Source: an archaeon
GTDB lineage: Archaea > Undinarchaeota > Undinarchaeia > Undinarchaeales > JBDRKL01
Direction: 5' to 3'
Length of the DNA: 64,000 nt
Assembly: GCA_043814055.1 (NCBI GenBank)
Contig: JBDRKL010000004.1
Span: forward strand, 80,518 to 144,517
Under the pieces are notes generated by a model. That model searched no databases and was not told the origin of the DNA. It worked only from the letters and a program-made list of their open reading frames with translations. The position numbers and the translations under genes are program-made. Shown here in pieces: positions 1,276 through 58,300 of this stretch. Each line of letters begins with the position of its first letter. The first letter of the stretch is position 1.

Positions 1276-1686
1276 ATGCCTTTTGAATATATTGAGCACG
1301 AGGCGGACATTGGAATTAAAGGAACGGGCAAGACAGTGGAAGAGGCCTTTGCAGAGGGAGCCAGGGCAATGTTCGGTATTATGGTTGATTTGGAAAAAGT
1401 TGACCCTGTCAAAAGAATTGAGGTTGAATGCGAAGCTGAAAACATCGGGTCTCTTTTTGTTGAATTTCTTAATGCCCTGCTCGCTCAAGTCAACATTGCA
1501 GAAATGTTCTTTTCAAAGTTTGAAGTTAAGATTGACGGTACTCATCTGACTGCAACTGCGTGGGGTGAGCAGATTGACCAGGAGAAGCACCAGACCAAGA
1601 TTGAAGTCAAGGCGGCGACTTTCTCTGGGTTGAAGTATGAAGAGAAAGATGGGGTTCACTCAATTCAGTGTGTGGTTGATGTGTAG
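1276..1686 (+). CDS. Archease (RtcB cofactor)
   Basis: EYIEHEADIGI N-terminus, EVKAATF C-terminal motif; adjacent to rtcB. Confidence 0.95.
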   Translation: MPFEYIEHEADIGIKGTGKTVEEAFAEGARAMFGIMVDLEKVDPVKRIEVECEAENIGSLFVEFLNALLAQVNIAEMFFSKFEVKIDGTHLTATAWGEQIDQEKHQTKIEVKAATFSGLKYEEKDGVHSIQCVVDV

Positions 1687-4567: not shown

Positions 4568-6042
4568 TTGTAGAACCTGCTCCACTTGTGGCTGCCGATT
4601 GTCGCGCCTATCCAAACCAGAACTGGCAATATTTCAAGGCGGCCTATCCACATCTGGAAAATGAGGACTATTTTTATCAGCATCGGCGCGGTTGCGGAAG
4701 TTATTCCAGTGCTCAACCCGACTGTTGCAGCAGCTGAAGTTGTCTCAAACAATGAGTCAATGAAGCTGAAGCCATACGCTGTTATTATAAGGGTTCCAAC
4801 AATGATAAAGAGCATATAAATGAAGAAGTACCACGAGACCTGATTTGCCTCCTCCTCTGAGAACACTTTCTTCCCAACTTTCAGCGGGAGAACCGAGGTC
4901 TTCGGCAGGAGGAACTTGTTTATTATCCAGGGCACTGAGCTGAGGAGCATTAGCAATCTTATGATTTTCAGTCCGCCAGCTGTTGACCCGGCTGACCCGC
5001 CGATGAGCATCAATACTATCATAACGCTCTTCACGAAATCATCTGCCAATGCTATGTCCATCGTCGCGTAGCCAGTGGTTGTGCTGGCGCTCATAACCTG
5101 GAAAGCGCTGTGCCGCAGAGGCTCTGGGTCTCCCTGACCCTGCAGGTACAGGGCAAGTATTCCAGTGAACACTATAAATATGACAAGCAGAGCCTGCACT
5201 TCTCTGCTCTTCGCAAAGCCCCTAAGTTCCTGCCACTTCCAGCCAAGGAGCTTGTAGTGAAGTATGAACGGTATTGAGCCGACAAGCATCAATGCCATTA
5301 TTGCAATTTCAATCCCAACGCTTGAGTAAGCGCCTATGCTCACGGCCTTGATGGAGAAGCCGCCTGTTGAGACAACTGTGAACACGTGGTTGATAGCGTC
5401 GTAAAGCGGCATTCCAAGCAGGTAAAGAATGAGCGCCCCAACCGCAGTGTACAATAAATATATCTTTGCCATGTTGCGCACAGTGTGGTGCACGCTCGGC
5501 TCAAGTCGCTCTTCCCTCGCCTCGCCCCTGAACAGGTAAGAAGCTGACATTCCAGGCCCGACCATAACTGTGAGGAAAAGCACAACTACGCCTATACCGC
5601 CTATCCATTGCGTCAAACTGCGCCAGAACAACAAGCTTAGCGGCACTGCTTCAATATCTGGCAGAGTGCTTAATCCCGTTGTTGTAAATCCGGACATTGA
5701 CTCAAAGTAGCTGTTCACAAATGCATCCGCCCCAAGCCCGCCATAGAGCTGCGGCGAGAGCATGTAGTAAGGCGCAGCTCCAACCAGCGCCATTATTGCG
5801 AAAGCACTGGCACCAAGAACCATAGCCCGGCCAAGTGTCAAATGCCCTCGCTGGTAACGCTTGAACAGCGTGAATCCAAAACTAAGTGATATCACGGACG
5901 CGATTACATAAGGCAAGAACGGCTCACCGTAGTAGACCGCGAGAATAACCGGGAGCAGAATTAAATTGCCTACAACCAGGAGAATTATGCCTAGGTAATG
6001 CAGTACTGTTGAAGCGAATTCAGGAGTTATCTTGGCTCTCAT
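4564..6042 (-). CDS. trkH: Trk potassium uptake membrane protein
   Basis: FESMSGFTTTG, WIGGIG, VSTGGF, TTTGY, IGGSAGSTAGGLK, TVGLS, GRLEI motifs. Confidence 0.95.
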   Translation of the reverse strand: MRAKITPEFASTVLHYLGIILLVVGNLILLPVILAVYYGEPFLPYVIASVISLSFGFTLFKRYQRGHLTLGRAMVLGASAFAIMALVGAAPYYMLSPQLYGGLGADAFVNSYFESMSGFTTTGLSTLPDIEAVPLSLLFWRSLTQWIGGIGVVVLFLTVMVGPGMSASYLFRGEAREERLEPSVHHTVRNMAKIYLLYTAVGALILYLLGMPLYDAINHVFTVVSTGGFSIKAVSIGAYSSVGIEIAIMALMLVGSIPFILHYKLLGWKWQELRGFAKSREVQALLVIFIVFTGILALYLQGQGDPEPLRHSAFQVMSASTTTGYATMDIALADDFVKSVMIVLMLIGGSAGSTAGGLKIIRLLMLLSSVPWIINKFLLPKTSVLPLKVGKKVFSEEEANQVSWYFFIYMLFIIVGTLIITAYGFSFIDSLFETTSAAATVGLSTGITSATAPMLIKIVLIFQMWIGRLEILPVLVWIGATIGSHKWSRFYN

Positions 6043-18934: not shown

Positions 18935-20671
18935 ATGAGACTCGCAATAGTAGATAATGATCAGTGCAACCCTGAAACCTGCGGAGGCTTTCTCTGCGCC
19001 AGGGTATGCCCTGTGAACCGCGCCAAGAAGGCGTGCATTACTCAAAATTCTGAAATAAACCGGCCGCAGATAAATGAGGACTTGTGCATCGGCTGCGGAA
19101 TCTGCGTGAACAAGTGCCCGGTTGATGCAATCACAATCATAAACCTCGCAGAGGAGCTCAAGGACGATTTGCTCCACAGATACGGCGAGAACGGATTCGC
19201 GCTCTACCGCGGGCCAATCCCAATCAAGAACCAGGTTGTCGGTTTACTTGGTCAGAACGGAACTGGAAAAACCACTGCGCTCCAGATTCTCTCAGGCGAC
19301 CTGAAGCCGAACCTCGGCGCAGAAACTGAAGCGACCAAGGAGCAGCTCAAGGAATTCTTCAAGGGCTCGGAGATGCAGGACTACTTTGAGAACATTGAGC
19401 AGAAAAAGATGTCCTACAAGCCGCAGTACGTTGACCGGATTCCAAAAATGTTCAAGGGCAAAGTCAAGGACTTGCTAAAAAAATCCGACGAGCGCAAAAT
19501 CTATGACAAAATGGTCAAGGAGCTCGGCATGGAAGCGTTCTTGGAAAATGATATCACTGAAATCTCCGGCGGAGAGCTGCAAAAAACTGCGATTGCCGCA
19601 GCGATTATGAAAAACGCTGACATTTACTTCTTTGACGAGCCTTCCTCATACTTGGACGTCAAGGAGAGGCTTAAAATCGCGCGCGCGATTCAGGAATTGG
19701 CAAAGGAAAAACTCGTGATGGTTGTGGAGCACGACCTTGTTGTGCTTGACTACCTCACGGACCTGGTGCACGTATTCTACGGCAAGCCAGCAGCGTACGG
19801 AATAGTGAGCTTCCCCAAGGCAGCGCGGAACGGAATCAACGCATATTTAGAAGGGTTCCTCAAGGAAGAGAACGTTCGCTTCAGGGAAACTCCAATCAAG
19901 TTCATTGTGAAGGGCGCGGAGAAAGGAAAGAAACTTAATCCAATTGTAAATTTTGAAGGGCTCAGCAAGAAGTTTGACAATTTTGAACTCACTGTTGAGA
20001 AAGGAGAAATCCACGAAAAGGAAATTGTCGGAGTTCTTGGCCCGAATGCAACAGGCAAAACAACTTTCATGAAGATGCTCGCAGGGGAATTGAAGTCAGA
20101 CTCTGGCAATTTGAGCAAGGAAATCAAAATCTCATACAAACCGCAATACATCAAGCCAGAAGATGACTTGTTTGTGCGAGTTGCACTTGCAAAAACACCC
20201 CAGAAGCTCATCGCAGACCTCAGCCTTGAAAAGCTACTTGAGAAAAAGCTCGGCCAGCTCTCAGGCGGGGAACTGCAGAGAGTAGCAATCGCGCGGTGCC
20301 TGAGCCAGGAAGCAGACCTTTACCTGCTTGACGAGCCCTCGGCGCACTTGGACGTTGAGCAGCGCGTGAACGTTGCAGACATCTTGAAGCGGGATATTTC
20401 AACCCGCGAGAAGAGCGCAATAGTAATTGACCACGACATAATGTTCCTTGATTACTTGAGCGACAGGCTCATGACATTCCTTGGCGAACCAGGTAAAAAG
20501 GGCGAAGGCAAAGGACCTTACGCAATGGAAGAAGGAATGAACCTGTTCTTGAAGGACTTGGACATCACGTTCCGCAGGGACCCGGACACAGGCAGACCGA
20601 GGTCAAATAAACCTGACTCAGTAAAAGACAGGGAGCAGAAGAAGAGTGGGAATTGGTATTATGTTAAATAA
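18935..20671 (+). CDS. rli: Ribosome recycling ATPase ABCE1/RLI
   Basis: N-terminal Fe-S motifs, two Walker A boxes (GQNGTGKT, GPNATGKT), FRRDPDTGRPRSNK. Confidence 0.97.
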   Translation: MRLAIVDNDQCNPETCGGFLCARVCPVNRAKKACITQNSEINRPQINEDLCIGCGICVNKCPVDAITIINLAEELKDDLLHRYGENGFALYRGPIPIKNQVVGLLGQNGTGKTTALQILSGDLKPNLGAETEATKEQLKEFFKGSEMQDYFENIEQKKMSYKPQYVDRIPKMFKGKVKDLLKKSDERKIYDKMVKELGMEAFLENDITEISGGELQKTAIAAAIMKNADIYFFDEPSSYLDVKERLKIARAIQELAKEKLVMVVEHDLVVLDYLTDLVHVFYGKPAAYGIVSFPKAARNGINAYLEGFLKEENVRFRETPIKFIVKGAEKGKKLNPIVNFEGLSKKFDNFELTVEKGEIHEKEIVGVLGPNATGKTTFMKMLAGELKSDSGNLSKEIKISYKPQYIKPEDDLFVRVALAKTPQKLIADLSLEKLLEKKLGQLSGGELQRVAIARCLSQEADLYLLDEPSAHLDVEQRVNVADILKRDISTREKSAIVIDHDIMFLDYLSDRLMTFLGEPGKKGEGKGPYAMEEGMNLFLKDLDITFRRDPDTGRPRSNKPDSVKDREQKKSGNWYYVK

Positions 20672-21818
20672 TCACATGCTTATACACAAACAACCCGCTC
20701 AAAATCTTCGGCGCAAAAAAAGTTGACTTCTCTGGCATTACAATGTTTGAATCTTCCAAGCCTGCGTTTGCAACTTCCATTAATTCTTCAATTGAAACTG
20801 GGTGCAGCGCAATCGCAGCATCATACTTGCCCCCGTCAACAACTTTCTTCATTGTGTCAAGCTCGGACTCTGCGTAGTAGTCAAAGTGCGCGTGGTCCAT
20901 AATCATGTCGTGCGTCAGCTCAAACACTGGGTAAACTTCCCTTTCAAGAATGCTTGAGTCAAATTTGCCAACAACATCGTCAGGGACTTCCTTTGCATTC
21001 AGCAAATAGGACTTGCCACCTGAGTAGATGCAGAACTGGTGCTTCTCCGGGGTCTTGAACTCGTTAGTCTCTTCGAGCTCAAACCTGTCGCTTACTTCGT
21101 CAAACTTTTTCACTCCAGTTACCACGCGGTTGTACGCCTGAATCTTGGCCTCTTCAACAATGTACGCCAAAAAGTGCGTCTGGTTATTCTTCAGCGAAGT
21201 GTGATATCTGTGGTGCCCGTCCGCGATATAGAGGTTGTTCTTGCCGATGAGCTCCTTGAGCTTTTTGCCTTCTGCGCTGTTCTCCTTGACGCGGAAAACT
21301 CTGTTCTTTATCCCGTTCAGCTCGCTCTGCCCGCCAAAGTCAGATGTGAACTCATACTCTGGCTCGTATTTTGACTTAATCTCCTCAAGCACTGAGCTGA
21401 TTGGGGACTTGGTCAGCAAAAACACAGGGCCGAATGAGTAGCCAGTGGTTCGCCTAAGCTTCAGCCTGCCTTGGACTTTCTCGTCAAAAGTTTTCTCGTG
21501 CCGGATAATCTCGCCTTTTGAGTAATCGCTAACAGCCGCGGCAACGAACACGCCGGTTCGCGTCTCGTTCCCATAGCGCTGCTCGTAAACATAAAAACAC
21601 GGCTCGTTATCCTCAATGAGCGCCCCGCGCTCAATAAGCTCCTCAAGCGCGCCAACAGGGTGGGAGCCGAGCGTGATGTGAAATAATGAATTCTCTCTCT
21701 GCTGCAAAAATTTCTCCAGCTCTGTGCCTGGCTTTATTACGTCATATGGCGGGGCAGTGACCTCGCCGACTTTTTCCTTTGAAGGCCTAAGGCCTGTAAG
21801 TCCAATTATCTCTACCAT
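20664..21818 (-). CDS. DUF1015 family protein
   Basis: APPYDVI, IIRHEKT, YIADGHHRY, MPEKSTFFAPK. Confidence 0.92.
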   Translation of the reverse strand: MVEIIGLTGLRPSKEKVGEVTAPPYDVIKPGTELEKFLQQRENSLFHITLGSHPVGALEELIERGALIEDNEPCFYVYEQRYGNETRTGVFVAAAVSDYSKGEIIRHEKTFDEKVQGRLKLRRTTGYSFGPVFLLTKSPISSVLEEIKSKYEPEYEFTSDFGGQSELNGIKNRVFRVKENSAEGKKLKELIGKNNLYIADGHHRYHTSLKNNQTHFLAYIVEEAKIQAYNRVVTGVKKFDEVSDRFELEETNEFKTPEKHQFCIYSGGKSYLLNAKEVPDDVVGKFDSSILEREVYPVFELTHDMIMDHAHFDYYAESELDTMKKVVDGGKYDAAIALHPVSIEELMEVANAGLEDSNIVMPEKSTFFAPKILSGLFVYKHVII

Positions 21819-21869
21819 TTCTCAATGCACCTCGTGGCGCTCTATCCGTTCAAGTGGTTTAAATATATT

Positions 21870-22229
21870 TCACTTCCCAACAGTCATAACCAGTTCTTCT
21901 TGCTCAGCAATTATCTTGTTCATGTTGTCGTTTGACAGCTTTTGGTCGAGCTTGATAAGCAGTTGAGCGTATGGATTCCTCTCGTTTAGCTTGTACATTT
22001 TCGCTCTTCCCACGCAACGGGTGTGCTTTATGAGCCCGACTTCTATGAGCCGCGGGATGACCTCGTGTAGCGTGGTCCAGCCAACTTCTGCGCCTTCCTC
22101 TATGTCCGAGAGCGAGTAGTCCAATCCCCTGCCGAGTATTAAAAGGTCAATAACCCGTATGGTTGGCGAATTCCCAAGCGCCTTTGTTAAAAAAGTTTCT
22201 TCATATGTCATATTTGTTTCCATACACAA
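21870..22229 (-). CDS. Winged-helix (ArsR-like) DNA-binding protein
   Basis: GNSPTIRVIDLL..DYSLSDI..TRCVGRAKMYKLN. Confidence 0.8.
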   Translation of the reverse strand: MCMETNMTYEETFLTKALGNSPTIRVIDLLILGRGLDYSLSDIEEGAEVGWTTLHEVIPRLIEVGLIKHTRCVGRAKMYKLNERNPYAQLLIKLDQKLSNDNMNKIIAEQEELVMTVGK

Positions 22230-22272
22230 CCTCCTATTTAAATGTTTGTTTTTAGAGCTTTATTATTCTTTT

Positions 22273-22548
22273 TTAGAGTATTAGTTTACTGTCAATTTCC
22301 TCTTTAATTTCCTTAATGAAACGCGGATTCAATGAAACGTGGTCGTCTTCAACTGTTTTCTTTAGCATAATTTTTCTCTCCTTAACTAGGTCTGCTATGG
22401 CTCTTTTAGTCTCTTTTGATCCTCGGTTCTCCCGCGGAATCTTCTTTAGCATGTTCACGACACTTGTATGAGCCCCGCCCCACTTGCCTCTACGGTCCAA
22501 AGTTTCCAGCACGATTCGTCTCATCAAGCAATACTTTTCATAGTCCAT
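22273..22548 (-). CDS. Small basic hypothetical protein
   Basis: 91 aa, KWGGAHT and HVSLNP motifs; directly upstream of the HTH gene. Confidence 0.7.
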   Translation of the reverse strand: MDYEKYCLMRRIVLETLDRRGKWGGAHTSVVNMLKKIPRENRGSKETKRAIADLVKERKIMLKKTVEDDHVSLNPRFIKEIKEEIDSKLIL

Positions 22549-22608
22549 ATCGCCCAGAGCTTCAGATGAATATATAACCTTTTTTTAACTCTACTAGGTT
22601 TGTTGAGC

Positions 22609-23580
22609 ATGAACATCCTCGGAATTGAGTCCACAGCGCACACCTTGGGAATCGGTGTCTGCACAGATGAAGGTGAAATAATCTCAAGCGAGAAGATTAC
22701 ATACATTCCGGAGTCTGGCGGCATAGTGCCGCGCGAAGCAGCTGAATACCAGGCAGACCATTTTAAAGAAGTTCTTGACAAGGCAACTGAGAAAGGTGGA
22801 TTGGATGAAATCGACGCGTTTGCATTCGCGCAGGGACCTGGTCTCGGACCGTGCCTCAGAATCGGAGCCACAGCCGCCCGCTACTTATCTGAAGTTTACA
22901 AAAAACCGCTCATCGGTGTTAACCACTGCGTTGCACATATCGAAATCGGCAAGCTCGCAACAGGAACAAAAGACCCGGTTGTGCTTTATGTCTCAGGCGG
23001 GAACACGCAGGTCATCGCATACTCCGGCGGCAGGTACAGAGTCTTTGGGGAAACCTTGGACGTTGCAGTAGGAAACTGCCTTGACCAATTCAGCAGAGAA
23101 TTAGGTTTACAGCACCCAGGCGGGCCAAAGATAGAAGCGCTCGCGCTTGAGGGAAAAAATTACATTGAGCTCCCCTACGTTGTGAAAGGAATGGACTTGT
23201 CATTCTCAGGAATACTAACTTCGGTCAAGAACAAAGTGAAAGACCACAGCAAGGAAGATTTGTGCTACTCGTTCCAGGAAACCGCGTTCGCAATGCTCAC
23301 CGAAGTCACTGAGCGCGCAATGGCGCACACAGAGAAGCAAGAATTGCTCGTAACAGGCGGGGTCGCGGCTAACCAAAGACTCGCGGGAATGCTCGGCACA
23401 ATGTGCAAAGAGCGCGGCGCAGAGTTCCACGTGGTTCCAATGGAGCACGCCGGCGACAACGGTCTGATGATTGCGTGGACAGGAGCAGTTATGCTCAAAG
23501 CCGGGCTAACAACTGAGCTTAAGGATTCAAAAATAAATCAAAGGTTCCGCACAGATCAGGTTGATGTTACTTGGATGTGA
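22609..23580 (+). CDS. kae1: t6A synthesis protein Kae1 (KEOPS)
   Basis: LGIESTAHT, GPGLGPCL, VNHCVAH, YVSGGNTQ, DNGLMIA. Confidence 0.97.
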   Translation: MNILGIESTAHTLGIGVCTDEGEIISSEKITYIPESGGIVPREAAEYQADHFKEVLDKATEKGGLDEIDAFAFAQGPGLGPCLRIGATAARYLSEVYKKPLIGVNHCVAHIEIGKLATGTKDPVVLYVSGGNTQVIAYSGGRYRVFGETLDVAVGNCLDQFSRELGLQHPGGPKIEALALEGKNYIELPYVVKGMDLSFSGILTSVKNKVKDHSKEDLCYSFQETAFAMLTEVTERAMAHTEKQELLVTGGVAANQRLAGMLGTMCKERGAEFHVVPMEHAGDNGLMIAWTGAVMLKAGLTTELKDSKINQRFRTDQVDVTWM

Positions 23581-23583
23581 TTC

Positions 23584-24039
23584 TTATTTTATCTTGCCAC
23601 TCTTAAGCAATTTCTCTATTTCCTTTTTCACTTTGTCAGGCTGTTTCTTATATACCGCACTGCAGACAGTCAGCTCAGACAATCTGCACTCTACTGCAGT
23701 TGCTTGTATTGCCGCTAAGACATCTCCTTTGTTGTGCTCCTCAAACGCAGTAAGTATCTTGGAGTTAAATCTTTTTTTTGGCTGCGGGTTCCGTGTTGAG
23801 GGGCGCGTATTATTCTTTTTTATAGGGCTATCTGGAATTTCGCCTGACTTTATCCTTGAACTAATGCATGCAAGTTCTCTGCGCTCGTCCTTAGTAAGCA
23901 TTGAGCGCACAGCTTTGCAAACATTAAGGGCGCTGACTCCACACTCTTTTGAAGTATTGATAATCGCAGTTTCCAGAGTATTAGTTGCCATCTGCTGCTT
24001 GTACTCTTCACGTACTAATACTGGCCACGTTATTCTCAT
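23584..24039 (-). CDS. Hypothetical protein
   Basis: 151-aa ORF overlapping the dCMP deaminase operon; no recognised motif. Confidence 0.6.
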   Translation of the reverse strand: MRITWPVLVREEYKQQMATNTLETAIINTSKECGVSALNVCKAVRSMLTKDERRELACISSRIKSGEIPDSPIKKNNTRPSTRNPQPKKRFNSKILTAFEEHNKGDVLAAIQATAVECRLSELTVCSAVYKKQPDKVKKEIEKLLKSGKIK

Positions 24040-24045
24040 ATTATG

Positions 24046-24573
24046 TCACTTCTCAACCTTCTGCAACTCAACACCGCAGTCCTTCATAATCTTCTCAGCC
24101 ATCAAATCCGGATAGCCGTTCTCATAAATTAGCTTTTTAATTCCGGCATTAACTATCATCTTCGCGCAAACTGAGCACGGAGTGTTCGTGCAATACATTG
24201 TCGCGCCTTTGATTGAAACTCCAAACACCGCTGACTGAATAATTGCGTTCTGCTCAGCGTGCAAGCCAGTGCAGAGCTCGTGCCGCTCTCCGCTCGGAAC
24301 TTTCAAATCGTCGCGCAGGCATCCGATTTCGTCGCAGTGCTTCATCCCTTTTGGATTACCATTGTAGCCAGTTGTGAGGATGTGTTTGTCTTTCACAATC
24401 ACTGCGCCGACCATCCTGCGCGGGCAGGTTGAGCGCTCTTTCACAAGGTGAGCCATCTTCATAAAATATTCATTGCTTGACGGTCTCCCCTTAGTTTTAC
24501 CACCCTCGGTCTCAGCCCAGCTGCCTTTGGACATGAATTCTTCTAGTTTTTCCTTGTAGTTTACTTCAGCCAT
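24046..24573 (-). CDS. dCMP deaminase / ComEB family cytidine deaminase
   Basis: [28 protein letters not shown]. Confidence 0.93.
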
Positions 24574-24690
24574 TTCAAACTCCCCAATCGCACAGTGTTT
24601 GAAATAGACACAAAGCTTATTTTACGTATAAACTTTGTGTCGTATGTCTCCCGAAGCAAATAAAAGGTTAGGAGTTTATTAAAGTTTGCT

Positions 24691-24735
24691 ATGAACAAAT
24701 TCCTCAAGCTCGGCGCAGAGGCAAAGAATGATTAG
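24691..24735 (+). pseudogene. Displaced 5' end of bud32 (MNKFLKLGAEAKND*)
   Basis: KFLKLGAEAK identical in amino acids to bud32 residues at 25290-25319, differences only at third codon positions. Confidence 0.85.
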
Positions 24736-25291
24736 GTCATCTATTATAGCGGAAAAGATTTGGGAATATCTTAGGGATAACTTGGGTAAACTCAAAGACA
24801 AGTACACAAAGCCCAATGACAGAGTAGAACTGGTAAGAGGGATAGTGAAAGAAATCGGCACAAATGCTCGCACAGTAAACCCCTTCTTCAGTTACCTCCT
24901 TCAGGCTCCGCAAAAAGGTTGGAAAGTAAAATGGGGTTCCTTCTTCAAGAGAATGCATGAAGAGGATGTATTTTTCTTCTTGCAGTTGTCCCTTTTCATT
25001 TACAAGATTACTAGAGGGGGGGCGAGAAAATCAGGTGTGGTTTCTGCAATAGGCCTTGGGTATACGTTCAAAGCAACAGGCAGGGAACTTGACGACGTGT
25101 ACAAAACCGGTGCCACAGGGTTTATCTACAGTTACATACGAAAAAATGGCAGCATAACTGTTCCGGATGACTGCACAAAAGTGCAGGCCTACCTGAAGGA
25201 TCAGTACCAAAAGCACGATATAACAACAGTGCTTTCAACAATTACAACACTACTGCTCTGTGGGAGTATAGAGGTGCAGGGTGCAAAGTAA
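24728..25291 (+). CDS. Hypothetical cargo protein inserted in the bud32 5' end
   Basis: 187-aa AT-rich ORF between two copies of the bud32 N-terminus. Confidence 0.7.
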   Translation: MIRSSIIAEKIWEYLRDNLGKLKDKYTKPNDRVELVRGIVKEIGTNARTVNPFFSYLLQAPQKGWKVKWGSFFKRMHEEDVFFFLQLSLFIYKITRGGARKSGVVSAIGLGYTFKATGRELDDVYKTGATGFIYSYIRKNGSITVPDDCTKVQAYLKDQYQKHDITTVLSTITTLLLCGSIEVQGAK

Positions 25292-25877
25292 ATTCCTAAA
25301 GCTCGGCGCAGAAGCGAAACTCACCCGAAAAGGCGACAAGCTCACAAAGGAGCGCATCAAGAAAGGGTACCGCCTGAAAGAAATAGACGAGCCGCTCAGA
25401 AAACAAAGAACCGCGCGGGAAGCGAGCCTGATGGACAGGGCAAGGCGAGCCGGAGTTCTAGTCCCAAAGATTTACAAAGTTGACAAGGAAAAAATGAGCA
25501 TTGAAATGGATTTCCTTGAAGCGAAGCGAATTGACCAGGTTCTGACTGAAGAGCTCTGCGCGCAAACAGGAGCTGAAATCGCAAAGCTGCACGATGCTGA
25601 CATAATCCACGGCGACTTGACAACTTCAAACATCCTTGTGAAAGAAGACGGCATTTACTTCATAGACTTCGGGCTCGGCGAAGTTTCAAAAAGCATTGAG
25701 AAGAAAGGCGTTGACCTGCGCGTGTTTAAGGAAGCAATCCGCGCGACAAAAGGCGAGGAAGCTGACAAGTACATAGACGCGGCGATGAAAGCGTATGTGG
25801 AAAATTCAGAATCCGGCGCAGAAGTTTTAAAGCGCTTGGAAAAAATCGAGACAAGAGGCAGGTATAAAGAGCGTTAA
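25281..25877 (+). CDS. bud32: KEOPS kinase Bud32
   Basis: GAEA, KERIKKGYR, HGDLTTSN, IDFGL, RGRY. Confidence 0.95.
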   Translation: MQSKFLKLGAEAKLTRKGDKLTKERIKKGYRLKEIDEPLRKQRTAREASLMDRARRAGVLVPKIYKVDKEKMSIEMDFLEAKRIDQVLTEELCAQTGAEIAKLHDADIIHGDLTTSNILVKEDGIYFIDFGLGEVSKSIEKKGVDLRVFKEAIRATKGEEADKYIDAAMKAYVENSESGAEVLKRLEKIETRGRYKER

Positions 25878-26689
25878 TCTGAATTGTCTTTGTCTATTCC
25901 GCACTTCAAAATCATCTTCCTATACTTCTCCGGTTCAGCAAATTTTTCAGTCAGTTCCAGATACTCTCCCACCAGTTCTTCACGCGCCGGCGCCTGACCT
26001 TTTTTAAGCCTGTCAAATATCGCAGGGTCTCGCACAGCTTCCCGTCCTATCATAACTCCTTTCACTCCCATGTTTTTTAGAAACTCCACCTGCTTTTTTG
26101 TGTGTATGTCGCCGTTCGCGATTATGTTTTTTCCTGTTTCCACGCACTCTTCATAAACTGAAAAATCAGCAGGCTCCGCGCTGGTCTGCGTGCCGTGCCT
26201 TGCGTGGACCACGAAGAACTCTGCGTCAACTCCACTAATCAGATTCAGGTAAACCTTGTTCTCCTTGTCCCTCTGATTTAGGCCGAGTCGCATCTTCACA
26301 GATGCCTTGAACCCGTGGTCCCTAAACATATCCAACAGTTTCTTGGTCTTTGCCACGCGCCTAACCAGCGCGCACCCCTGCCCTTCTCTTATTACTTCAG
26401 GGCTCGGGCAGCCAAGGTTGAGGTTGAACCCCTCAAAACCTTTTGGCGGCTCAAACATAGCGAGAAACTGCGTGAACTGCGACTCGCTGACTCCAAGGAG
26501 CTGGGCGACCACAGGCGTCTCGTCCTTGAAATCAAGGCGGGACCAGGTGAGCTTGTTCTTCCGCGCGAGCCCGCCTACTTTTACCAGCTCTGTGAATGTG
26601 AGGTCAGCGCCGTGCCTGTGGCAAAGCGTTCTGAACGCGTTGCTGGTGATACCCTCCATCGGAGCCAGCATATACTGGAATTCATTCAT
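25874..26689 (-). CDS. dus: tRNA-dihydrouridine synthase family protein
   Basis: LAPMEG, NLGCP, KMRLG, VHAR, ANGDI, MIGR. Confidence 0.92.
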   Translation of the reverse strand: MNEFQYMLAPMEGITSNAFRTLCHRHGADLTFTELVKVGGLARKNKLTWSRLDFKDETPVVAQLLGVSESQFTQFLAMFEPPKGFEGFNLNLGCPSPEVIREGQGCALVRRVAKTKKLLDMFRDHGFKASVKMRLGLNQRDKENKVYLNLISGVDAEFFVVHARHGTQTSAEPADFSVYEECVETGKNIIANGDIHTKKQVEFLKNMGVKGVMIGREAVRDPAIFDRLKKGQAPAREELVGEYLELTEKFAEPEKYRKMILKCGIDKDNSD

Positions 26690-26827
26690 GCCAATAACTT
26701 GAAACGCGGATTATATAAGGTTTATACCGGCGCAGAAACAGCAGAGCGCTGTATAAATCAATGTATAATCTCAAAGAACCGCCGCGTCCCAGATAAGTAT
26801 TTAAGCAAAAGTTTTCATAGATATTTT

Positions 26828-27541
26828 ATGAAGGAATTCGATGTGTTGCCCTGCCCAAAGTGCAAAGGTTATTCTCTTGAAGGGGCTAAAATCCAGGTTA
26901 AGGATGGCAGGATACGCATAGTCCACACGGACTGCGGTGGCCGGCCCGCGGTTGCTGTAACCAAGATTTCCAAAAACGTTTTGTTTGAGCTCAAAACCTG
27001 TTTGAAAGATTTCAAGCTTTCAAGCAAGAAGGGATTTGAGCAACCAGGACTGGAGCTCTGGTGGGATATCTTCTCCGCTGTCCTAAACTCACTAAGTTCT
27101 GAAGTTTTCAAAGAAAAAGGGGAGTACGCGGAAGAGAAGGCTGTAATACTCATTAAAACCATACAAATGGCTGAGAAGTATCTGTGGAGTTATGTAGACC
27201 TAGACCCATCGCGTATTCGAGAAATCAATCAGGACAATTATAAAAAATTCCGGGAAGGTATGCTGAAGCAAATGTCAGAGTTGCTTGGTGAGTCGGTTGA
27301 AATTGATACCGATGTAATCCGCGCCAGGGTCAAAGAGTTTGCAGACAATAAATTCAACCCTGAGAGCATTACCGATTGGTGGAGATCTGACTTTCGCATC
27401 GTAAGGCAGTTCATCTTAGATGTAAAAGAACTCGATATGAATTCTGCTGGAAAATCAGAGCTCATATCTTATCTCCTTATTATGGAGATGTACTACGGGC
27501 CTATCCTTGCCTATGATGAAATAACAGTGCAAAGTAAATAA
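26828..27541 (+). CDS. Hypothetical protein with N-terminal CxxC...HxxC Zn finger
   Basis: In-frame ATG at 26828 downstream of the divergent dus start; CPKC...VHTDC. Confidence 0.7.
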   Translation: MKEFDVLPCPKCKGYSLEGAKIQVKDGRIRIVHTDCGGRPAVAVTKISKNVLFELKTCLKDFKLSSKKGFEQPGLELWWDIFSAVLNSLSSEVFKEKGEYAEEKAVILIKTIQMAEKYLWSYVDLDPSRIREINQDNYKKFREGMLKQMSELLGESVEIDTDVIRARVKEFADNKFNPESITDWWRSDFRIVRQFILDVKELDMNSAGKSELISYLLIMEMYYGPILAYDEITVQSK

Positions 27542-27702
27542 TGGTGCACTATGAGTTGCTTTAGCAGCCATGTGCTAATATAGGTTCTATAGCGCAAAGA
27601 AAGGTAATTATAAATAAGCACCAAGCTCGGCGCAGAGACGTGGAAGTGCGGCAGGTACAAAGAAAGATAGTTTATAAATAGTTCACTCTACATTATTTTA
27701 TT

Positions 27703-29802
27703 ATGGTAAGCACGAAGAAAGCAATTATTGTTATTGTTATTCTAGTTATCATACTTGTTGCACTTTTCCTAGTAGCTCTAGAGGCTGGCTGGTTGGACTC
27801 AATCAGTTTTGGCAGTGGCGGTGGAGGCGGTAGCGGTGGGAGCAGTACCCCGCGGCAAGGTGGTCAAACCACTTCAGCTAACTGGGGGAACATTATTATC
27901 CTTATCATAGTTATGGGCAGTCTTGGCGGGCTTGGCAAGGGTATAACAGGTACACAGCGCTACCAGAATTGGAAAGCTGGCAAGGATGAAGAGGGTGCAA
28001 AAACTCCTGACAAAAAGAAATCTAAAGCGGAAAAGGAGGCGGAAAAAAAGAAAAAGAAGGCGGAAAAGGAAGCTCAACAAAGGCTGAAGAAGGCAGACGA
28101 GGCGCGCAAGAAACAAGTAAAAGCCGAGGCGAAAGAGCGAAAAAAAGCCGAACAAAAACGTCTTCCACTTGAAGACATAAACCAAAAGACGAAAGCACGC
28201 TTCGGTGACCCTGGCAAAGTTCCTCTTTCTAAACGGGACATATGCCCGCACTGCGGAAATCTAATTTACAAAGGCACTAAAAAGTGTCCGCTCTGCAAAA
28301 AAGATCCTAGAAAGAAAGCTCAGAAGAAAACGAGAGACACTGCTTCTGCGTCTCAAGGTGCCTCCTCTTTTTGGACAACCTGCGAAAATTGCGGAAAGCC
28401 TCTTGGCAAGGATATGACAATCTGCGAGGTGTGCCACCACGCAGTTGGTCAGAAAGATTCTCCAAAGCAGCCAAAAGGCAAGGGGGCATCTCCTCCAGTG
28501 CACAGCGTTTCTAAATATTCAGAATCTAATAAAATAAAATGCCATAACTGCTACAAGGAAATCTCAAAATATTCTGAGGTTTGCCCTCATTGTAACGCAC
28601 GCCAAATTCCAGCAGAGCTTTCTGATCTTCATATCCCGCTGGAAAAAAAGAAGTTCTGGCCTTTTGGAAAAACAGTTGAGTTCGGCCACGCGCTGTTTGA
28701 CGAGGACGGCAAGCCGATTCCAAACACGCCGCACGGCTCAACAATCATCTGTCCAAAATGTCATAAATCACTTATGATGTTCAAGGTCAAGCCGAATCAC
28801 AGTGTGAAGGCCGCAGTCTGCCCAAACTGCAAGTTCAACGCGCTCAAGGACGACAAGCAACTGAAGGGGCTTTTTGAAAAGATAAAGCCGTGCCCATACT
28901 GCAAGAGCCACTCGCTCAAGCACACAGTTCTTATTTTAATCAAGCATCAAATCCCTGCCTCAGCTGGGACAAAGGAAGTGGACATTGGCATGTATGGAAT
29001 TCACAGGGGCAGGTGCTTCACCGCTTACTCCAAGCAAATTGGTAGCAGACCAGCACTTGAGATAACTAAAAAGCATCTTAAAGACCACTCAGAGACGGAC
29101 TGGTATATACCTGGCAAATCTGCCGAGGCTATTTTGTCCGACGACGACTACGCTGGCTTACCTGACCACGGCGGACTGGCTGATGATGGTTATTCCAGGG
29201 AAACGGAAAATCAGGAAGCTTCACCTGAAAGTCTGACTGAGCAGCTCAGGCAAAAATACAAGGGCAGGATAAAGACTATTGGCTCAAACGAATCCGTGCG
29301 CTGCCCGAAGTGCAAGACGTTGGGCAAAATCCTTTTCATCACATACGGCTACAACTCGCTCGCAGGAACTTACAGCGCAGTAGGCATCTGCGACAATTGT
29401 AAAGAGGAGCAAATCACAGTTGGCACCAAAATCCGCAAGTGCATAATCTGCGGCAACAAGTCGTTGCATTACGCAAAGGTTGCCGCTTCCTTCAAGGGGC
29501 TCACCTTGGTGCACAACGCGTGCTATGCCAAGCTGAAAAACAAAGACGACGCGCAATTTGAGAAACCCAGGAAGAAGCGGGAACAGAAGGAGGCCAAGAA
29601 AGTGCCCAAGACAGAATCAACCGAGAAGTCAGGCTTTTTCGCGCGGCTTTTTGGCCGTGGTGACAAAGAGGCGGATGAAGATGTGGGTGGAGCGGATGAT
29701 ATGGCAGGCATGGTCAAGTGTTCTAAATGTGAAGCAATCATGCCCAAGGACGCTGATATCTGCTTTGAGTGCGGCGCTGATTTTACTGAGGATGATGAAT
29801 AG
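27703..29802 (+). CDS. Membrane-anchored multi-zinc-ribbon protein
   Basis: Two N-terminal TM segments, K/E-rich coiled coil, 14 CxxC motifs including double-zinc-ribbon pairs. Confidence 0.8.
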   Translation: MVSTKKAIIVIVILVIILVALFLVALEAGWLDSISFGSGGGGGSGGSSTPRQGGQTTSANWGNIIILIIVMGSLGGLGKGITGTQRYQNWKAGKDEEGAKTPDKKKSKAEKEAEKKKKKAEKEAQQRLKKADEARKKQVKAEAKERKKAEQKRLPLEDINQKTKARFGDPGKVPLSKRDICPHCGNLIYKGTKKCPLCKKDPRKKAQKKTRDTASASQGASSFWTTCENCGKPLGKDMTICEVCHHAVGQKDSPKQPKGKGASPPVHSVSKYSESNKIKCHNCYKEISKYSEVCPHCNARQIPAELSDLHIPLEKKKFWPFGKTVEFGHALFDEDGKPIPNTPHGSTIICPKCHKSLMMFKVKPNHSVKAAVCPNCKFNALKDDKQLKGLFEKIKPCPYCKSHSLKHTVLILIKHQIPASAGTKEVDIGMYGIHRGRCFTAYSKQIGSRPALEITKKHLKDHSETDWYIPGKSAEAILSDDDYAGLPDHGGLADDGYSRETENQEASPESLTEQLRQKYKGRIKTIGSNESVRCPKCKTLGKILFITYGYNSLAGTYSAVGICDNCKEEQITVGTKIRKCIICGNKSLHYAKVAASFKGLTLVHNACYAKLKNKDDAQFEKPRKKREQKEAKKVPKTESTEKSGFFARLFGRGDKEADEDVGGADDMAGMVKCSKCEAIMPKDADICFECGADFTEDDE

Positions 29803-29833
29803 CCTCGCCCAAATTACATAACCTCTTATTCCA

Positions 29834-30253
29834 ATGAAATTCACAAAACAATCCGACAATGAATACTTCGGCAGGTTTGAGGAGAACGAAGACCTCAAGC
29901 AAGCGCTCCTTGAGCTCTGCAAAACTGAAAACATTCAAAGCGGCTGGTTCACAATCATCGGCGCGGTGAAGAACTCTGAAATCGCATTCTATGACCAGGA
30001 CCAGGGCAAATACCTGAATATGGCTCTTGACGAGCACGCTGAAATCATCAACTGCACAGGCAACGTCTCTTTGAACGAGGGCGAGCCGTTCGTGCACATG
30101 CACGCAACGCTCGCGGACAGGGAAGGCAGGGCATACGGCGGGCACGTGACGCGCGCAAAGGTCTTCGCCGCTGAGTTTTACATTAAAAAATTTGACAAGC
30201 CGGTTGAGCGCAGAAAGGACGAGTCAATTGGACTGGGGCTGCTGGAGCCATGA
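29834..30253 (+). CDS. PPC/DUF296 domain protein
   Basis: IGAVK, EIINCTGNV, HMHATL, YGGH. Confidence 0.9.
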   Translation: MKFTKQSDNEYFGRFEENEDLKQALLELCKTENIQSGWFTIIGAVKNSEIAFYDQDQGKYLNMALDEHAEIINCTGNVSLNEGEPFVHMHATLADREGRAYGGHVTRAKVFAAEFYIKKFDKPVERRKDESIGLGLLEP

Positions 30254-30795
30254 TTCACTTCGCAACAACAAACCCTGGGAAATTCAGGGAAGCAAAGGCT
30301 TTGTTTGAGAAAAACAATTTAGAACTCAGCCAGTTCAACGAAGAGCTCACTGAAATCCAGACCGATGATGTTGAGCAACTTGCCCTACACTCAGTCCGCG
30401 AGGCATACGAGAAGCTCAAGCAGCCTGTCTTCGTTGAGGACGCGGGCATTTTCATCAAATCGCTCAAGGGCTTCCCTGGTGTTTACAGCAAGCAGGCATA
30501 CCTCACAATCGGCTTGAAAGGAATATTGAAACTTCTTGAAGGCGTTGAAGACCGGAGCGCAGAGTTCTGCGCGGTCATCGCATACAAGGACGGCTCCGGC
30601 GAAAAAGTATTTAAAGGAGTCTGCATAGGTAATATCTCCCGCGAAGTGCGCGGGCGAGGTGGTTTTGGTTTTGACCCTATATTCCTCCCGAAAGGGCGCG
30701 AAAAAACTTTCGCCGAGGATGTTGAAACTAAATCCAACCTGTCTCATCGCGCGAACGCTTTGAGCAAATTAATTGGACATTTAAAAAATGGCTAG
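30250..30795 (+). CDS. rdgB: Non-canonical purine NTP pyrophosphatase RdgB/HAM1
   Basis: ATTNPGKF, VEDAG, GFPGVYS, GFGFDPIF, SHR. Confidence 0.95.
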   Translation: MIHFATTNPGKFREAKALFEKNNLELSQFNEELTEIQTDDVEQLALHSVREAYEKLKQPVFVEDAGIFIKSLKGFPGVYSKQAYLTIGLKGILKLLEGVEDRSAEFCAVIAYKDGSGEKVFKGVCIGNISREVRGRGGFGFDPIFLPKGREKTFAEDVETKSNLSHRANALSKLIGHLKNG

Positions 30796-55365: not shown

Positions 55366-58300
55366 CTATGTGCTGTTATACGTCCAATTATAATTTTGTT
55401 CAGCTGTGAAAAAGTATCCCCAGCCTGGCTCAAGGCAGACGAAGTCGCCGCTCCACAATCCACTGCTGCGCGTTATGCTCTGGTAGCCAGTGCCAAGCAC
55501 GACGTAGCGCGCGATGGTATCGCCGTTTGACATTCCTGTTGCATTTAGTGTTGAGTTCAGGTTGCAGTCCTGTATTGCCGAAACCCATCCAACTGTGTTC
55601 ACTTCTATCTGCCCCAGTGTTGAGTTCGTCGCGCTTATCGTAACATTATTTGACCCGTTCAGCACTTCTCCGACGAGCCTGCCGTTGAGCGGGAGGTTAT
55701 TTGCCATCACATATGCACGCCCTGCAACCAAAGTTGTGAAATTTCCTTGCCAGGAGCCGTTCTTGTAGAACGCAGCCTGATACCCCGGCGGGCTTGTGCT
55801 CGTGTTATAATAAGCGATTACTGCAGAGTTTCCAGGGTCTTCAAAGAACGTGGAAGAAATGCTGGAGTTGACTGGGTTAAGCGGCAGAGAGAACAGCATC
55901 ATCTCAGTTGAGGTGCCAAGGCTCGTGGGCGTCATTGGGAGGTTGAACTTTCCCATCACGTTGGTGGTGAAGTTCAGGCTGGACCCGTTGTATGCAGCTA
56001 CTCTATAATACCTAGCACTGTACATGATTGCGTCTCCGTCGGTCCAGTTGGCATCGGAAGTGCTGTTGTATGACGCGTTGGTGGGGTTATTGAGTAGCAG
56101 AGTGGCGTTCTCGCTGTTGTAAATCCTGTACCCCTGAGCGTCTGGAACACTGCTCCAGTTCAGGACTATTGACTCGTTGTCAGAATGAAGCGCTGCAGTG
56201 AAGTTCTGCGGCATCTGCACAGATGGCGCAGGCAGGACTGTCAGATTGTAAATCGTTGCGCTGTGTGCTATGCCTGCTGAACAGCTCGTGGACACAGTGG
56301 CATTCACAGCCCCTGCGGACAGGGCGGTTATGTTCCAGTAAGTCGCTGTAATATTATCCTCTACAATGTTCCCCAGCACGTGCGTCAGATTCTCACCCGC
56401 GCTTATGTTCATTGCAGAACCGCTTATTGAAAGTGTCGCGTTGCAGCCCGTGACATTGCCGCCAGTTGCGTTTATCGTGGCATTCACGGTGAAATTGTCT
56501 GAAATGTTATACTGCGCATTCTCCGCAGGATGAGTTATGTTGACTGACGCGGTTCCGTAGTAAGCGCTCACGTTTATCATCACAGCGGCTTCAGTATAAT
56601 CTGAGTAAAAGTTCTCCCCTGGCTCGCAGTATCCCTGATATCCATTTCCTGTGACGCGCAGTTCCTGCAGACCTGGCGTTGCGTTCTGTGGTATAGTGAG
56701 GTTCGCTGTCATTACATAGAAGTGAGGCTTCAGTGTTTCAGATGCACTGGTGTTGCCAGCCATTACCAGGGTCGTGTTGTTCAAAAAGAACGCCCAGTGG
56801 CAGGGTATTACGCTCTGGTCGTGATAGCCGTACCAATATATTGTCGCTTCTATGGTTCCGTTTTGTTTCGGGCTGGAATTGCTCACAGAGAAATTCACAA
56901 CATCATATATTGAGTTGAAGGACGTGCACGAATGCGTGGATGAATTGGTCAGTGCTATCGGCTCTGCTGACGCAGTAAGGAAGAGCCAGGCCTGCTTCTC
57001 GTCAGGCGCGGTGACGCGGACTGAGTATATGCCAAAGCTCTCGGTTGTGAAATTGTAGTAAGCCACGCCCCCTGCAGTGGCTGACGAATTGTTGTAAAGC
57101 GATAGTGACTGGGTTGCGTTTATTCTCTTGAACCCCAGCTGGGAAGCATTGGACGTTGCCAGGACTGAAACGTTTGCGCTCTCATTCCAGTATACTGGGA
57201 TATTGCTTGAGTCAGACATGCTTATGTTCGAGTCGCTGCCGAGCGCCGCAACATTCAGCGAGTAGCTCGTGTTCTGCTGCTGAGCCGGCAGCCGAAGCGC
57301 AGGGTCGCCGAGTAGCGCGAACAGGAAGATTGTGCGCTCGTCCAGATTCATCTCAGGATTGTGGTTCGCTATAAAATAATCAAGCCCGCCCTTTGCCATT
57401 GCGCCGAGCGTGTTGTTCCCAGCGTGGTAGGCGTCAAAAATATATGTTATGATGGCTTCCATGTATGAGTGCGCGGTTATGTTAAGCACGCCGTTGTCAA
57501 AATGGTATGTGGGCGTTCCGCTGGTGGTCCTGCTCCCGCCAATGTACGCTATACCGCCAGCCTCAGAGAGCAAAAACGCTTCGCCGATTGATATGTTGTT
57601 GTAAGACGGGACATAGAGGTTCGTGTCAAAAGCGCCTGCGTCGCAGGACAGCGAGACTATAACTGGCACTCGTGAATTGTTGGAAAACGCCATAACATCA
57701 GCCAGTGTCAGGTATGGTGAAGAGGTCTGGAAGTACTGGCCGTTGCTGTGGCTGAACAGGTAGAACATTCCATAGCTTTCGTTCACCAGCGCGTTGCCTA
57801 TGTGTGTGCCTGTGAAATTGCCGTCAGTCTTGAAGAAGCGGGTTATGTTCATTCCGCTGAGCGCATTCCTGTTCACCACCTCCTGGACTATCATCTCGCC
57901 CTCGTGATATGTCCTGTAGTTAGGCGTGCCAGCGGCAAGGCCCACATTCTTGAACCAGTCCCAGGAAACCGTGGAGTTCCACGCAATTATCTTCTGCACA
58001 GTGTGGTTGGCCTGCGTGGTATTATTGACCGGCAATCTGCCGACCATGTAGGACGTGTCAAAGTTGTAGTCAGGCGAGGAGTAAAAAAAGTCAGTAGGAA
58101 CCCACTTGTCATAAGTCGCAGAGGCGGACGAGTACGCGTAATAGCTCGGCGGCACCTGAAGCCCGTTCCCGAAGAGCGTCACGTACTCAAGGTTGGGGTG
58201 CGCAGTGGTGTTGTTCAGGAAAGATACAATGCGGAGGGCGAGCGTGTAATTATAATTGGTTATGTTGCCTATCCCGCCAAGCGATGAGTTGCTGTAGCCA

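Follow-up and report, generated by a model that had tools for sequence, protein, structure and literature searches.

Why is the start of bud32, an essential gene for tRNA modification by KEOPS, present twice in the genome of an Undinarchaeota archaeon, once on either side of a gene without relatives? The locus lies in a 64,000-nucleotide (nt) stretch of DNA (hereafter the window) that corresponds to positions 80518-144517 of contig C4 in a 980-kb, 14-contig, 82%-complete assembly; coordinates below are those of the window unless another contig is named. A direct repeat on the plus strand pairs positions 24697-24726 with 25290-25319 (26/30 identical), and similarity ends sharply on both sides. 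Both copies encode the peptide KFLKLGAEAK, and their four differences (CTC/CTA, GAG/GAA, GCA/GCG, AAG/AAA) are all synonymous third-position changes, which agrees with an initial annotation that had described a duplicated bud32 N-terminus. The upstream copy is part of a 14-codon stub open reading frame (ORF), MNKFLKLGAEAKND* (24691-24735, plus strand), in which 12 old bud32 codons (ATG and 11 more) are followed by two foreign codons and a stop (ATG AAC AAA TTC CTC AAG CTC GGC GCA GAG GCA AAG AAT GAT TAG). The downstream copy belongs to bud32 itself (25281-25877, plus strand), which encodes 198 amino acids (aa) and begins with GTG CAA AGT AAA TTC CTA AAG CTC GGC GCA GAA GCG AAA. Between them lies an ORF of 187 aa (24728-25291, plus strand) with no function assigned, hereafter the orphan. 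It starts 1 nt after the first copy, in the region that the stub's stop overlaps, and its last 11 nt overlap the bud32 GTG start, the arrangement that had been noted before. The sequence unique to the insertion measures 563 nt (24727-25289), and the inserted block amounts to 593 nt when one repeat copy is counted.

A repeat of this kind is not a product of chance. Genome-wide, 100 direct pairs matching at 26 or more of 30 ungapped positions lie 80-4000 nt apart, and two controls at far offsets, each with an equal number of comparisons, yielded 0 and 1 pairs, which excludes chance for the bud32 repeat. We propose, with moderate confidence, that the arrangement is best explained by terminus displacement through one-sided homologous recombination with a diverged, related lineage.

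The gene whose start is duplicated encodes the KEOPS kinase/ATPase Bud32. Its product is a RIO-type kinase (Pfam RIO1, 3.6e-11, plus Kdo and Pkinase matches) of about 200 aa that has an N-terminal GAEA loop and a linked kae1 gene (22600-23580, plus strand; recognized by a Pfam-type domain scan) 1.7 kb upstream. It is 76% identical to the closest public Bud32 protein (P0003), and lower-ranked matches of the same search are annotated as Bud32. The annotation of these Bud32 relatives agrees with a placement of the genome in Undinarchaeota, a DPANN lineage. Ahead of the catalytic GAEA loop, the GTG at position 25281 is the sole in-frame start, and no ATG follows it until codon 51. A Shine-Dalgarno-like GAGGTG (25271-25276, plus strand) with a putative functional role is located 4 nt before this GTG.

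The genome that encodes P0003 (contigs L022-L025; hereafter the relative) provides the empty site. Its genes run kae1, a 57-aa ORF (minus strand), dcd (minus strand), bud32, a 603-aa ORF, PCC, Ham1, S15, S3Ae and cca. The core genes are in the same order as in the window, dcd and bud32 are back to back and the orphan is absent. Relative to this genome, therefore, the block is an insertion, as the initial annotation had predicted for a comparison of bud32 loci. The relative's dcd/bud32 spacer (L022 5959-6000) is 42 nt long when the dcd start is set at the conserved MAD/MAE, and it aligns with the 45-nt divergent spacer in the window (24646-24690), including a 10-nt exact match (P = 0.008 by shuffling). 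On the plus strand, the dcd start-codon position reads CAT followed by GTCTCC in the relative and TAT followed by GTCTCC in the window, where the TAT (24643-24645; dcd on the minus strand) is probably a relic of the ancestral dcd start codon. This alignment indicates that the ancestral spacer still sits directly before the stub. Sequence upstream of the functional copy has no detectable homology to that spacer (P = 0.89). The N-terminus of the stub matches those of relatives (MNKLLKVGAEAK / MKKLLKLGAEAK). Furthermore, six loci (L007-L012) from five GTDB genomes have dcd as the direct upstream neighbor of bud32 in divergent orientation; G011 has a different conserved 148-aa gene in the dcd-bud32 slot, without a stub, and none of the surveyed relatives carries the orphan.

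The comparison with the relative also bears on whether a metagenome assembly might have joined strain variants into a false structure. The fragmentation and incompleteness of the assembly give this idea some footing. However, the space between the copies is filled exactly by 563 nt of unique sequence with a coding signature, both flanks are syntenic with the relative, the copies differ, so that nothing has collapsed, and the same architecture occurs at many loci on other contigs. We consider an assembly artefact highly improbable.

Which of the two copies is native? Against the relative's KLLKIGAEAR, the stub matches at 26/30 nt and uses the same codon for all 7 of the 7 identical residues, and the functional copy (CTA, GAA, GCG, AAA) matches at 22/30 nt and 4/7 codons. 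Among identical residues, identical codons make up 0.44 of the total across bud32 and 0.45-0.59 in neighboring genes, and thus the functional copy is at the gene-wide background level. At all four sites where the copies differ, the relative carries the stub's base. This modest evidence favors the view that the stub is native and that the downstream copy, with its probably imported spelling, is the newcomer.

The opposite direction has also been considered, in which the orphan-bud32 pair is old in this lineage and the dcd side, together with the 12-codon stub, was imported from a lineage that lacks the orphan. It would account for the unusual closeness of the stub to the relative, and the functional copy's GAA, GCG and AAA follow bud32-wide codon preference, which the stub codons do not. 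However, dcd shows no excess similarity to the relative over other genes (72% aa identity, codon identity 0.51), and the spacer is only loosely alignable. Among the surveyed relatives in which dcd is the upstream neighbor, dcd and bud32 are adjacent in all but G011, and neither the orphan nor any homologue of it is present in any relative surveyed. Import from the dcd side therefore seems quite improbable.

The same four sites speak to another possibility, namely that a circle without a recombinase, consisting of the orphan and about 30 nt of the bud32 5' end, entered by a single Campbell-type crossover and might be precisely excised. The cargo is indeed flanked by direct repeats of a conserved gene end, recombination between which would restore an intact bud32 with its native ATG, and the repeat includes a core of 14 nt that is identical between the copies. 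A crossover of this type, however, would make both copies chimeric, and the relative matches the stub at 4/4 variable sites on both sides of the core. Moreover, 30 bases at 87% identity are a very short homology, and searches of the genome and of metagenomes revealed neither a circle junction nor a second site. We give such a circle little credence.

Evidence that does not depend on a single locus comes from a scan for duplicated gene ends, which combined a self-BLAST of the genome with tblastn searches of the first and last 40 residues of each gene against its own flanks. Terminus duplications are present at nine loci, bud32 included, and are 30-102 nt long where measured. The swap signature noted earlier at the end of the archease gene (C4 81793-82203, equal to window 1276-1686) was recovered upon re-measurement, and at least seven other gene ends show it besides. 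Across the nine loci, gene-attached and displaced copies differ at codon positions 1, 2 and 3 by 16, 8 and 56 nt, respectively, and 47 of the codon differences are synonymous compared with 17 nonsynonymous. The differences include two-base synonymous switches for arginine (CGN/AGR) and leucine (TTR/CTN), and TAA/TAG stop changes occur in downstream remnants that are incapable of translation. If the copies had been made in place and the displaced one had decayed neutrally, 36-43% of the differences should be synonymous. This model is rejected for the nine loci (P = 1e-9 to 7e-7) and for bud32 alone (P = 0.017-0.034). The synonymous excess indicates that the copies diverged as working genes in separate lineages and were then joined by recombination. 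The bud32 locus shows the corresponding donor-type polymorphism, with four synonymous differences in the 30 nt that adjoin the cargo.

A more elaborate in-place scenario would be an insertion with a 30-bp target-site duplication, either transposition-like or by fill-in of a staggered break, after which the stub was held under constraint and the functional copy drifted. The direct repeats abut the insert exactly, as such an event would leave them. The stub has a GAGG 6 nt before the orphan ATG and is more conserved with respect to the relative than the gene is on average (26/30 versus about 69%), which fits a constrained stub. Yet 4 of 10 synonymous sites changed in one copy and 0 of 30 sites in the stub, which would require strong constraint on every stub base. 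The synonymous bias seen class-wide in untranslated C-terminal remnants would also be left unexplained. Repeat lengths that vary from 30 to 102 nt between loci do not suit a fixed stagger, the repeat itself is imperfect, and neither a transposase nor terminal inverted repeats are present in the insert; among the 18 inverted-repeat pairs found, none is located at the insert ends. We regard target-site duplication as unlikely, although it has more in its favor than the other alternatives considered here.

Under terminus displacement, we infer both the direction of the event and the way in which the ends were joined. The donor would be a related lineage in which the orphan directly precedes bud32 in an operon-like arrangement, with overlapping stop and start, a GTG start and the GAGGTG motif. 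On the right side, the donor piece would have been joined by homology within the resident bud32 gene, and on the left side by illegitimate joining just after native codon 12. Perhaps a double-strand break at codon 12/13 was the trigger. The right-hand break end could then have invaded the donor and been extended leftwards across the donor bud32 start and then the orphan, after which end joining would have connected the new strand to the left-hand break end. The break would in this way define where the stub stops, and the cargo-side copy would be donor-templated. As a result, the native promoter region and 12 codons would persist as a dead 14-codon stub, followed by the orphan and a differently spelled bud32 5' end, with bud32 remaining intact as what is now the downstream cistron.

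Several considerations weigh against this explanation. Neither a donor nor a second copy of the orphan was found in the collections searched, and in metagenomes a degenerate KFLKLGAEAK pattern, which could have revealed donor or empty-site alleles, gave a single match to a distant bud32 like that of genome G006. Because no donor was found, the import is deduced rather than observed. The polarity of the copies relies on one relative with 76% protein identity and near-saturated synonymous sites. In addition, the stub is composed of the genome's commonest codons, and codon bias alone would produce its three synonymous matches with a probability of about 0.04. Constraint on the stub as part of a promoter-proximal or Shine-Dalgarno region may also let in-place divergence mimic the pattern at this locus, and at one of the other loci, the C-terminus of a DUF357 gene, polarity is ambiguous (8 versus 5 sites). 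Overall, bud32 is no more diverged from the relative than are kae1, dcd and Ham1, and codon identity to the relative reveals no mosaic boundary inside the gene. Consequently, the imported tract may end anywhere from codon 13 to beyond bud32. It could include all of bud32, the Dus-family gene that follows it and the next ORF, and those last two are also absent from this position in the relative. Finally, the joint in classical homology-facilitated illegitimate recombination usually falls outside the homologous stretch; that so many joints in this genome lie just within gene ends is a hint that something more specific is involved.

What, then, is the orphan? Its codon-usage log-odds score (0.084) exceeds those of the other five frames and is close to the median of genes with 120-260 aa in this genome (0.112). 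At third codon positions, its GC content (0.47) is below that of core neighbors (0.55-0.61) and like that of other local orphans. No domain was matched in Pfam, PHROGs, PADLOC or NCBIfam, comparison with PDB by sequence gave nothing below E = 0.09, and the genome holds no paralogue. Only the query itself was recovered from 5.8 billion word-indexed proteins, and the same was true with phmmer across 1.84 billion protein representatives. A single-sequence AlphaFold2 model, mainly helical with one central beta hairpin, has a predicted local distance difference test (pLDDT) score of 42 and is too poor to use; the Foldseek comparison proposed in the initial annotation yielded nothing below E = 3 (the best PDB match) with this model. 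The orphan is thus a genuine gene, one without homologues (an ORFan) and with a host-like coding signature.

Whether the orphan might have driven its own insertion is a separate matter. In the manner of a homing-type mobile ORF, it could encode a site-specific endonuclease that has escaped recognition, cleaves bud32 near codon 12/13 and spreads with a replacement end. The joint is exactly where such a break would lie, and the anatomy (a duplicated end, a synonymously diverged inserted end and a native end nearer the sister taxon) is that of mobile-ORF (mORF) gene hybrids. However, the four domain collections searched include no LAGLIDADG, GIY-YIG, HNH or other endonuclease match for the orphan, and no PDB entry matches it by sequence below E = 0.09. 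Homing genes normally occur in many copies and genomes, and the orphan has no homologues; likewise, the cargo at sister loci consists of MNT-HEPN pairs, GNATs and secreted orphans rather than nucleases. A homing origin consequently appears improbable. Neither the insert nor its ends have extra copies in the genome, and the only ORF of the insert has no recombinase domain. The idea that the block is a mobile cassette is thus not supported, as it is a single-copy sequence absent from public data that carries neither a recombinase nor a nuclease and lacks terminal inverted repeats. We regard the orphan as an accessory gene of the ordinary kind and not as the agent of its own insertion.

Gene hybrids of the mORF type have been described from fungal mitochondria, in atp6 of Allomyces macrogynus and in atp6, atp9, cox2 and nad3 of Glomus sp.; their native ends are nearer the sister taxon, and their inserted ends differ mostly at synonymous sites (PMC3630166). 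As in those hybrids, a gene end at the bud32 locus has received an ORF along with a replacement end, the old end persists as a duplicate, and the gene is functional. The duplicated end likewise flanks the ORF, and the inserted end is the more diverged, with modest polarity (26/30 versus 22/30). The differences are also clear. The mORF hybrids involve the C-terminus and carry LAGLIDADG or GIY-YIG homing endonucleases that drive mobility, whereas the bud32 event affects the N-terminus and its cargo has no nuclease signature and no relatives. Because the start codon is involved, expression signals are swapped as well, and the host sequence is an archaeal chromosome.

A second parallel is provided by C-terminal displacement in bacterial Rhs, CDI (contact-dependent growth inhibition) and type VI effector-immunity systems, where it is suggested to proceed by homology-facilitated illegitimate recombination (PMC5361080, which cites de Vries & Wackernagel 2002, Prudhomme et al. 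2002 and Jackson et al. 2009 in this connection). The same logic has been applied at toxin-immunity loci (PMC3240628). In these systems, as at bud32, the event is anchored on one side by homology to a conserved part of the gene, the new end is linked to a cargo gene and the displaced old end survives as an orphan remnant. Arrays grow through repeated events, and no dedicated recombinase is known. However, displacement in the bacterial systems exchanges functionally different toxin tips under diversifying selection, whereas at bud32 the same peptide of a housekeeping gene is swapped, at the 5' end and in a DPANN archaeon. The inserted block, at 0.6 kb with a single gene and no recombinase, also differs from site-specific integrative elements. 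Those elements, such as the ones in tRNA genes and the islands at the dusA 5' end, produce direct repeats of a gene end and supply the displaced gene part, and they are kilobases long and encode an integrase. The bud32 locus fits best as a variant of known terminus displacement that affects a 5' end and carries an ORFan, in a lineage for which such events have not been described.

If this reading is correct, the locus would record gene gain by a very small, host-dependent archaeon through DNA anchored on the conserved end of an essential gene. The newcomer would obtain a promoter and a ribosome-binding site at once, and bud32 would survive because the incoming piece also brings its replacement end. 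Left behind, the displaced stub would be a scar that can be dated and that reveals the event's direction, and bud32 would now be translationally dependent on a GTG behind a gene of unassigned function. The genome-wide synonymous bias provides direct evidence of recombination between diverged DPANN lineages, in which gene flow is poorly documented. As a single event, the bud32 insertion is modest, and its value is in linking whole-gene gain to the hairpin-module phenomenon in this genome.

The joints inside gene ends, along with hairpin and leader modules that have the same footprint, may indeed mean that a more specific process is at work. One tentative idea, which we view as possible but doubtful, is that Undinarchaeota have a general exchange process anchored on gene ends, in which the first or last 10-35 codons of housekeeping genes act as homology arms. 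Hairpin modules, start-codon leaders and accessory genes (ORFans, MNT-HEPN pairs and GNATs) may in that case move between lineages by means of an exchange that needs no element-encoded recombinase. Each event may leave a displaced native end, and precise loss through the repeats might be possible. The bud32 locus may then represent the whole-gene, 5'-end version of this exchange.

Whole-gene delivery with a terminus swap, as previously suggested for bud32, is seen at two further loci, and no recombinase or nuclease is among the cargo genes at any of the three. On contig C7, the first 17 codons of the DUF357 gene are duplicated 1.1 kb upstream around an MNT nucleotidyltransferase and HEPN pair (50/51 nt over 17 codons; 51/52 by blastn), and the overlapping TP_methylase and DUF357 genes of the relative (L027) represent the empty site for this insertion. 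On contig C13, the last 34 codons of a putative secD, so labeled from sequence and neighbor context only, are duplicated around a GNAT acetyltransferase.

Both regions contain further structure. Positions 33131-36700 of C7 form an insertion hotspot between TP_methylase and DUF357. Its contents are two hairpin modules (each with a re-copied C-terminus of TP_methylase behind it), a secreted, Cys-rich orphan of 299 aa, the DUF357 N-terminal stub, the MNT and HEPN toxin-antitoxin pair and DUF357, whose C-terminus is duplicated 56 nt downstream. Between the putative secD and AMMECR1 on C13 (29600-31820), two GNATs and a 271-aa internally repeated orphan are interleaved with three secD C-terminus copies. 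A chimeric stub (30244-30393) is also present, with 12 codons from the start of AMMECR1 joined to 34 from the end of secD. The interleaving and the chimeric stub imply nested events.

How the orphan is expressed can be considered from motifs around the stub. Shine-Dalgarno-like motifs precede 31.5% of the genes in this genome compared with 13.4% in a control. The GAGG that precedes the orphan ATG (24718-24721, within repeat copy 1) is part of the native bud32 spelling and is common to the relative. The retained spacer, the presumed promoter region of the stub, orphan and bud32, includes two A/T boxes, AAATAAAA (24658-24665) and TTTATTAAA (24675-24683). The initial annotation had pointed to the latter, which is present at -16 to -8 of the stub ATG. 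However, a distance of 8-16 nt is too short for the TATA box of a transcript that would include this ATG, and the box could instead start transcription inside the stub. The better-placed candidate is AAATAAAA, at -33 to -26, for which the relative has ATATTAAAT at an equal distance; as a box, it would yield a near-leaderless transcript. Judging from the retained spacer and the Shine-Dalgarno-like motifs, it is plausible that the cargo uses the bud32 promoter region and a fortuitous ribosome-binding site, in which case the genes would be co-transcribed from the ancestral spacer and the GAGG within the stub would serve translation of the orphan.

The statement that no hairpin element is visible at the locus is true of the insert itself, but a 69-nt hairpin-bearing leader element (24574-24642, minus strand; inverted repeat 24607-24641) is found at the dcd start codon, some 50 nt upstream. 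The dcd gene (24046-24573, minus strand) encodes a dCMP deaminase and is divergent from bud32. The element is one of five genome copies of a leader family of about 70 nt (window 24574-24645, C13 ~5765-5840, C7 ~66278-66350, C10 ~123897-123970 and C9 ~58110-58185) that sit exactly at gene start codons. Its sense strand reads ATGRCACAACAAAG, a hairpin CCAGCTTTGTGTGNATTTCAAAGCTGG, GGAGG and then CTTTGAA, which directly abuts the ATG of the gene. In 4/4 intact copies, a distal ATGRCA equals the ATGACA or ATGGCA of the gene itself. The relative (L022) lacks the copy at dcd. The family is either a start-codon-duplicating mobile module or a shared regulatory leader with alternative CAAAG/CUUUG pairings.

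Three other interpretations of the insert were examined and set aside. A bulge-helix-bulge mRNA intron is not supported, as the boundary duplex energy (-26.2) is weaker than the mean of random window pairs (-30.1) and there is no Rfam match. More generally, searches that included Rfam found no known RNA families or tRNAs in 23500-26500 or 20000-30000. The 593-nt spacing is close to the length of the 597-nt bud32 gene, which raised the question of a decayed tandem copy, but tblastn and Smith-Waterman comparisons of the orphan with bud32 were no better than with shuffled sequence. A role for the orphan as Cgi121 or another KEOPS partner is likewise unsupported, given that it matches no Pfam family, lacks similarity to the 148-aa ORF of G011 and has no orthologue in relatives.

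With regard to Cgi121, its family (PF08617) had no match in 17 genomes of the phylum searched, though kae1 and bud32 are present. The conserved 148-aa ORF of G011 (L006 1025-1471), between dcd and bud32, has related ORFs upstream of bud32 in G003 and G007, and proteins of this type are candidates for a KEOPS-associated role.

Every spacer between core genes in the bud32 neighborhood is unlike that of the relative (L022). In the gap between kae1 and dcd, the window has a 151-aa orphan (23584-24039, minus strand), where the relative has a 57-aa hydrophobic ORF (L022 5217-5390). Downstream of bud32, a Dus-family gene (25874-26689, minus strand), beyond which further orphans are found, and an orphan of about 278-408 aa occupy 25874-27541, between bud32 and the next gene (compare L022 6598-6631). 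The next large protein past bud32 and the Dus-family gene has 699 aa, compared with 603 aa in the relative, and the two share just 31% identity over 115 residues. In a related family, bud32 itself (L026 10556-11212, Ga0187827_10005397; G006 C4 65687-66331) contains about 20 additional in-frame residues, GSGNRDQGSGPDTRSPKPDTR, which immediately precede the IYFIDFG motif in the kinase core and possibly represent an in-frame element insertion.

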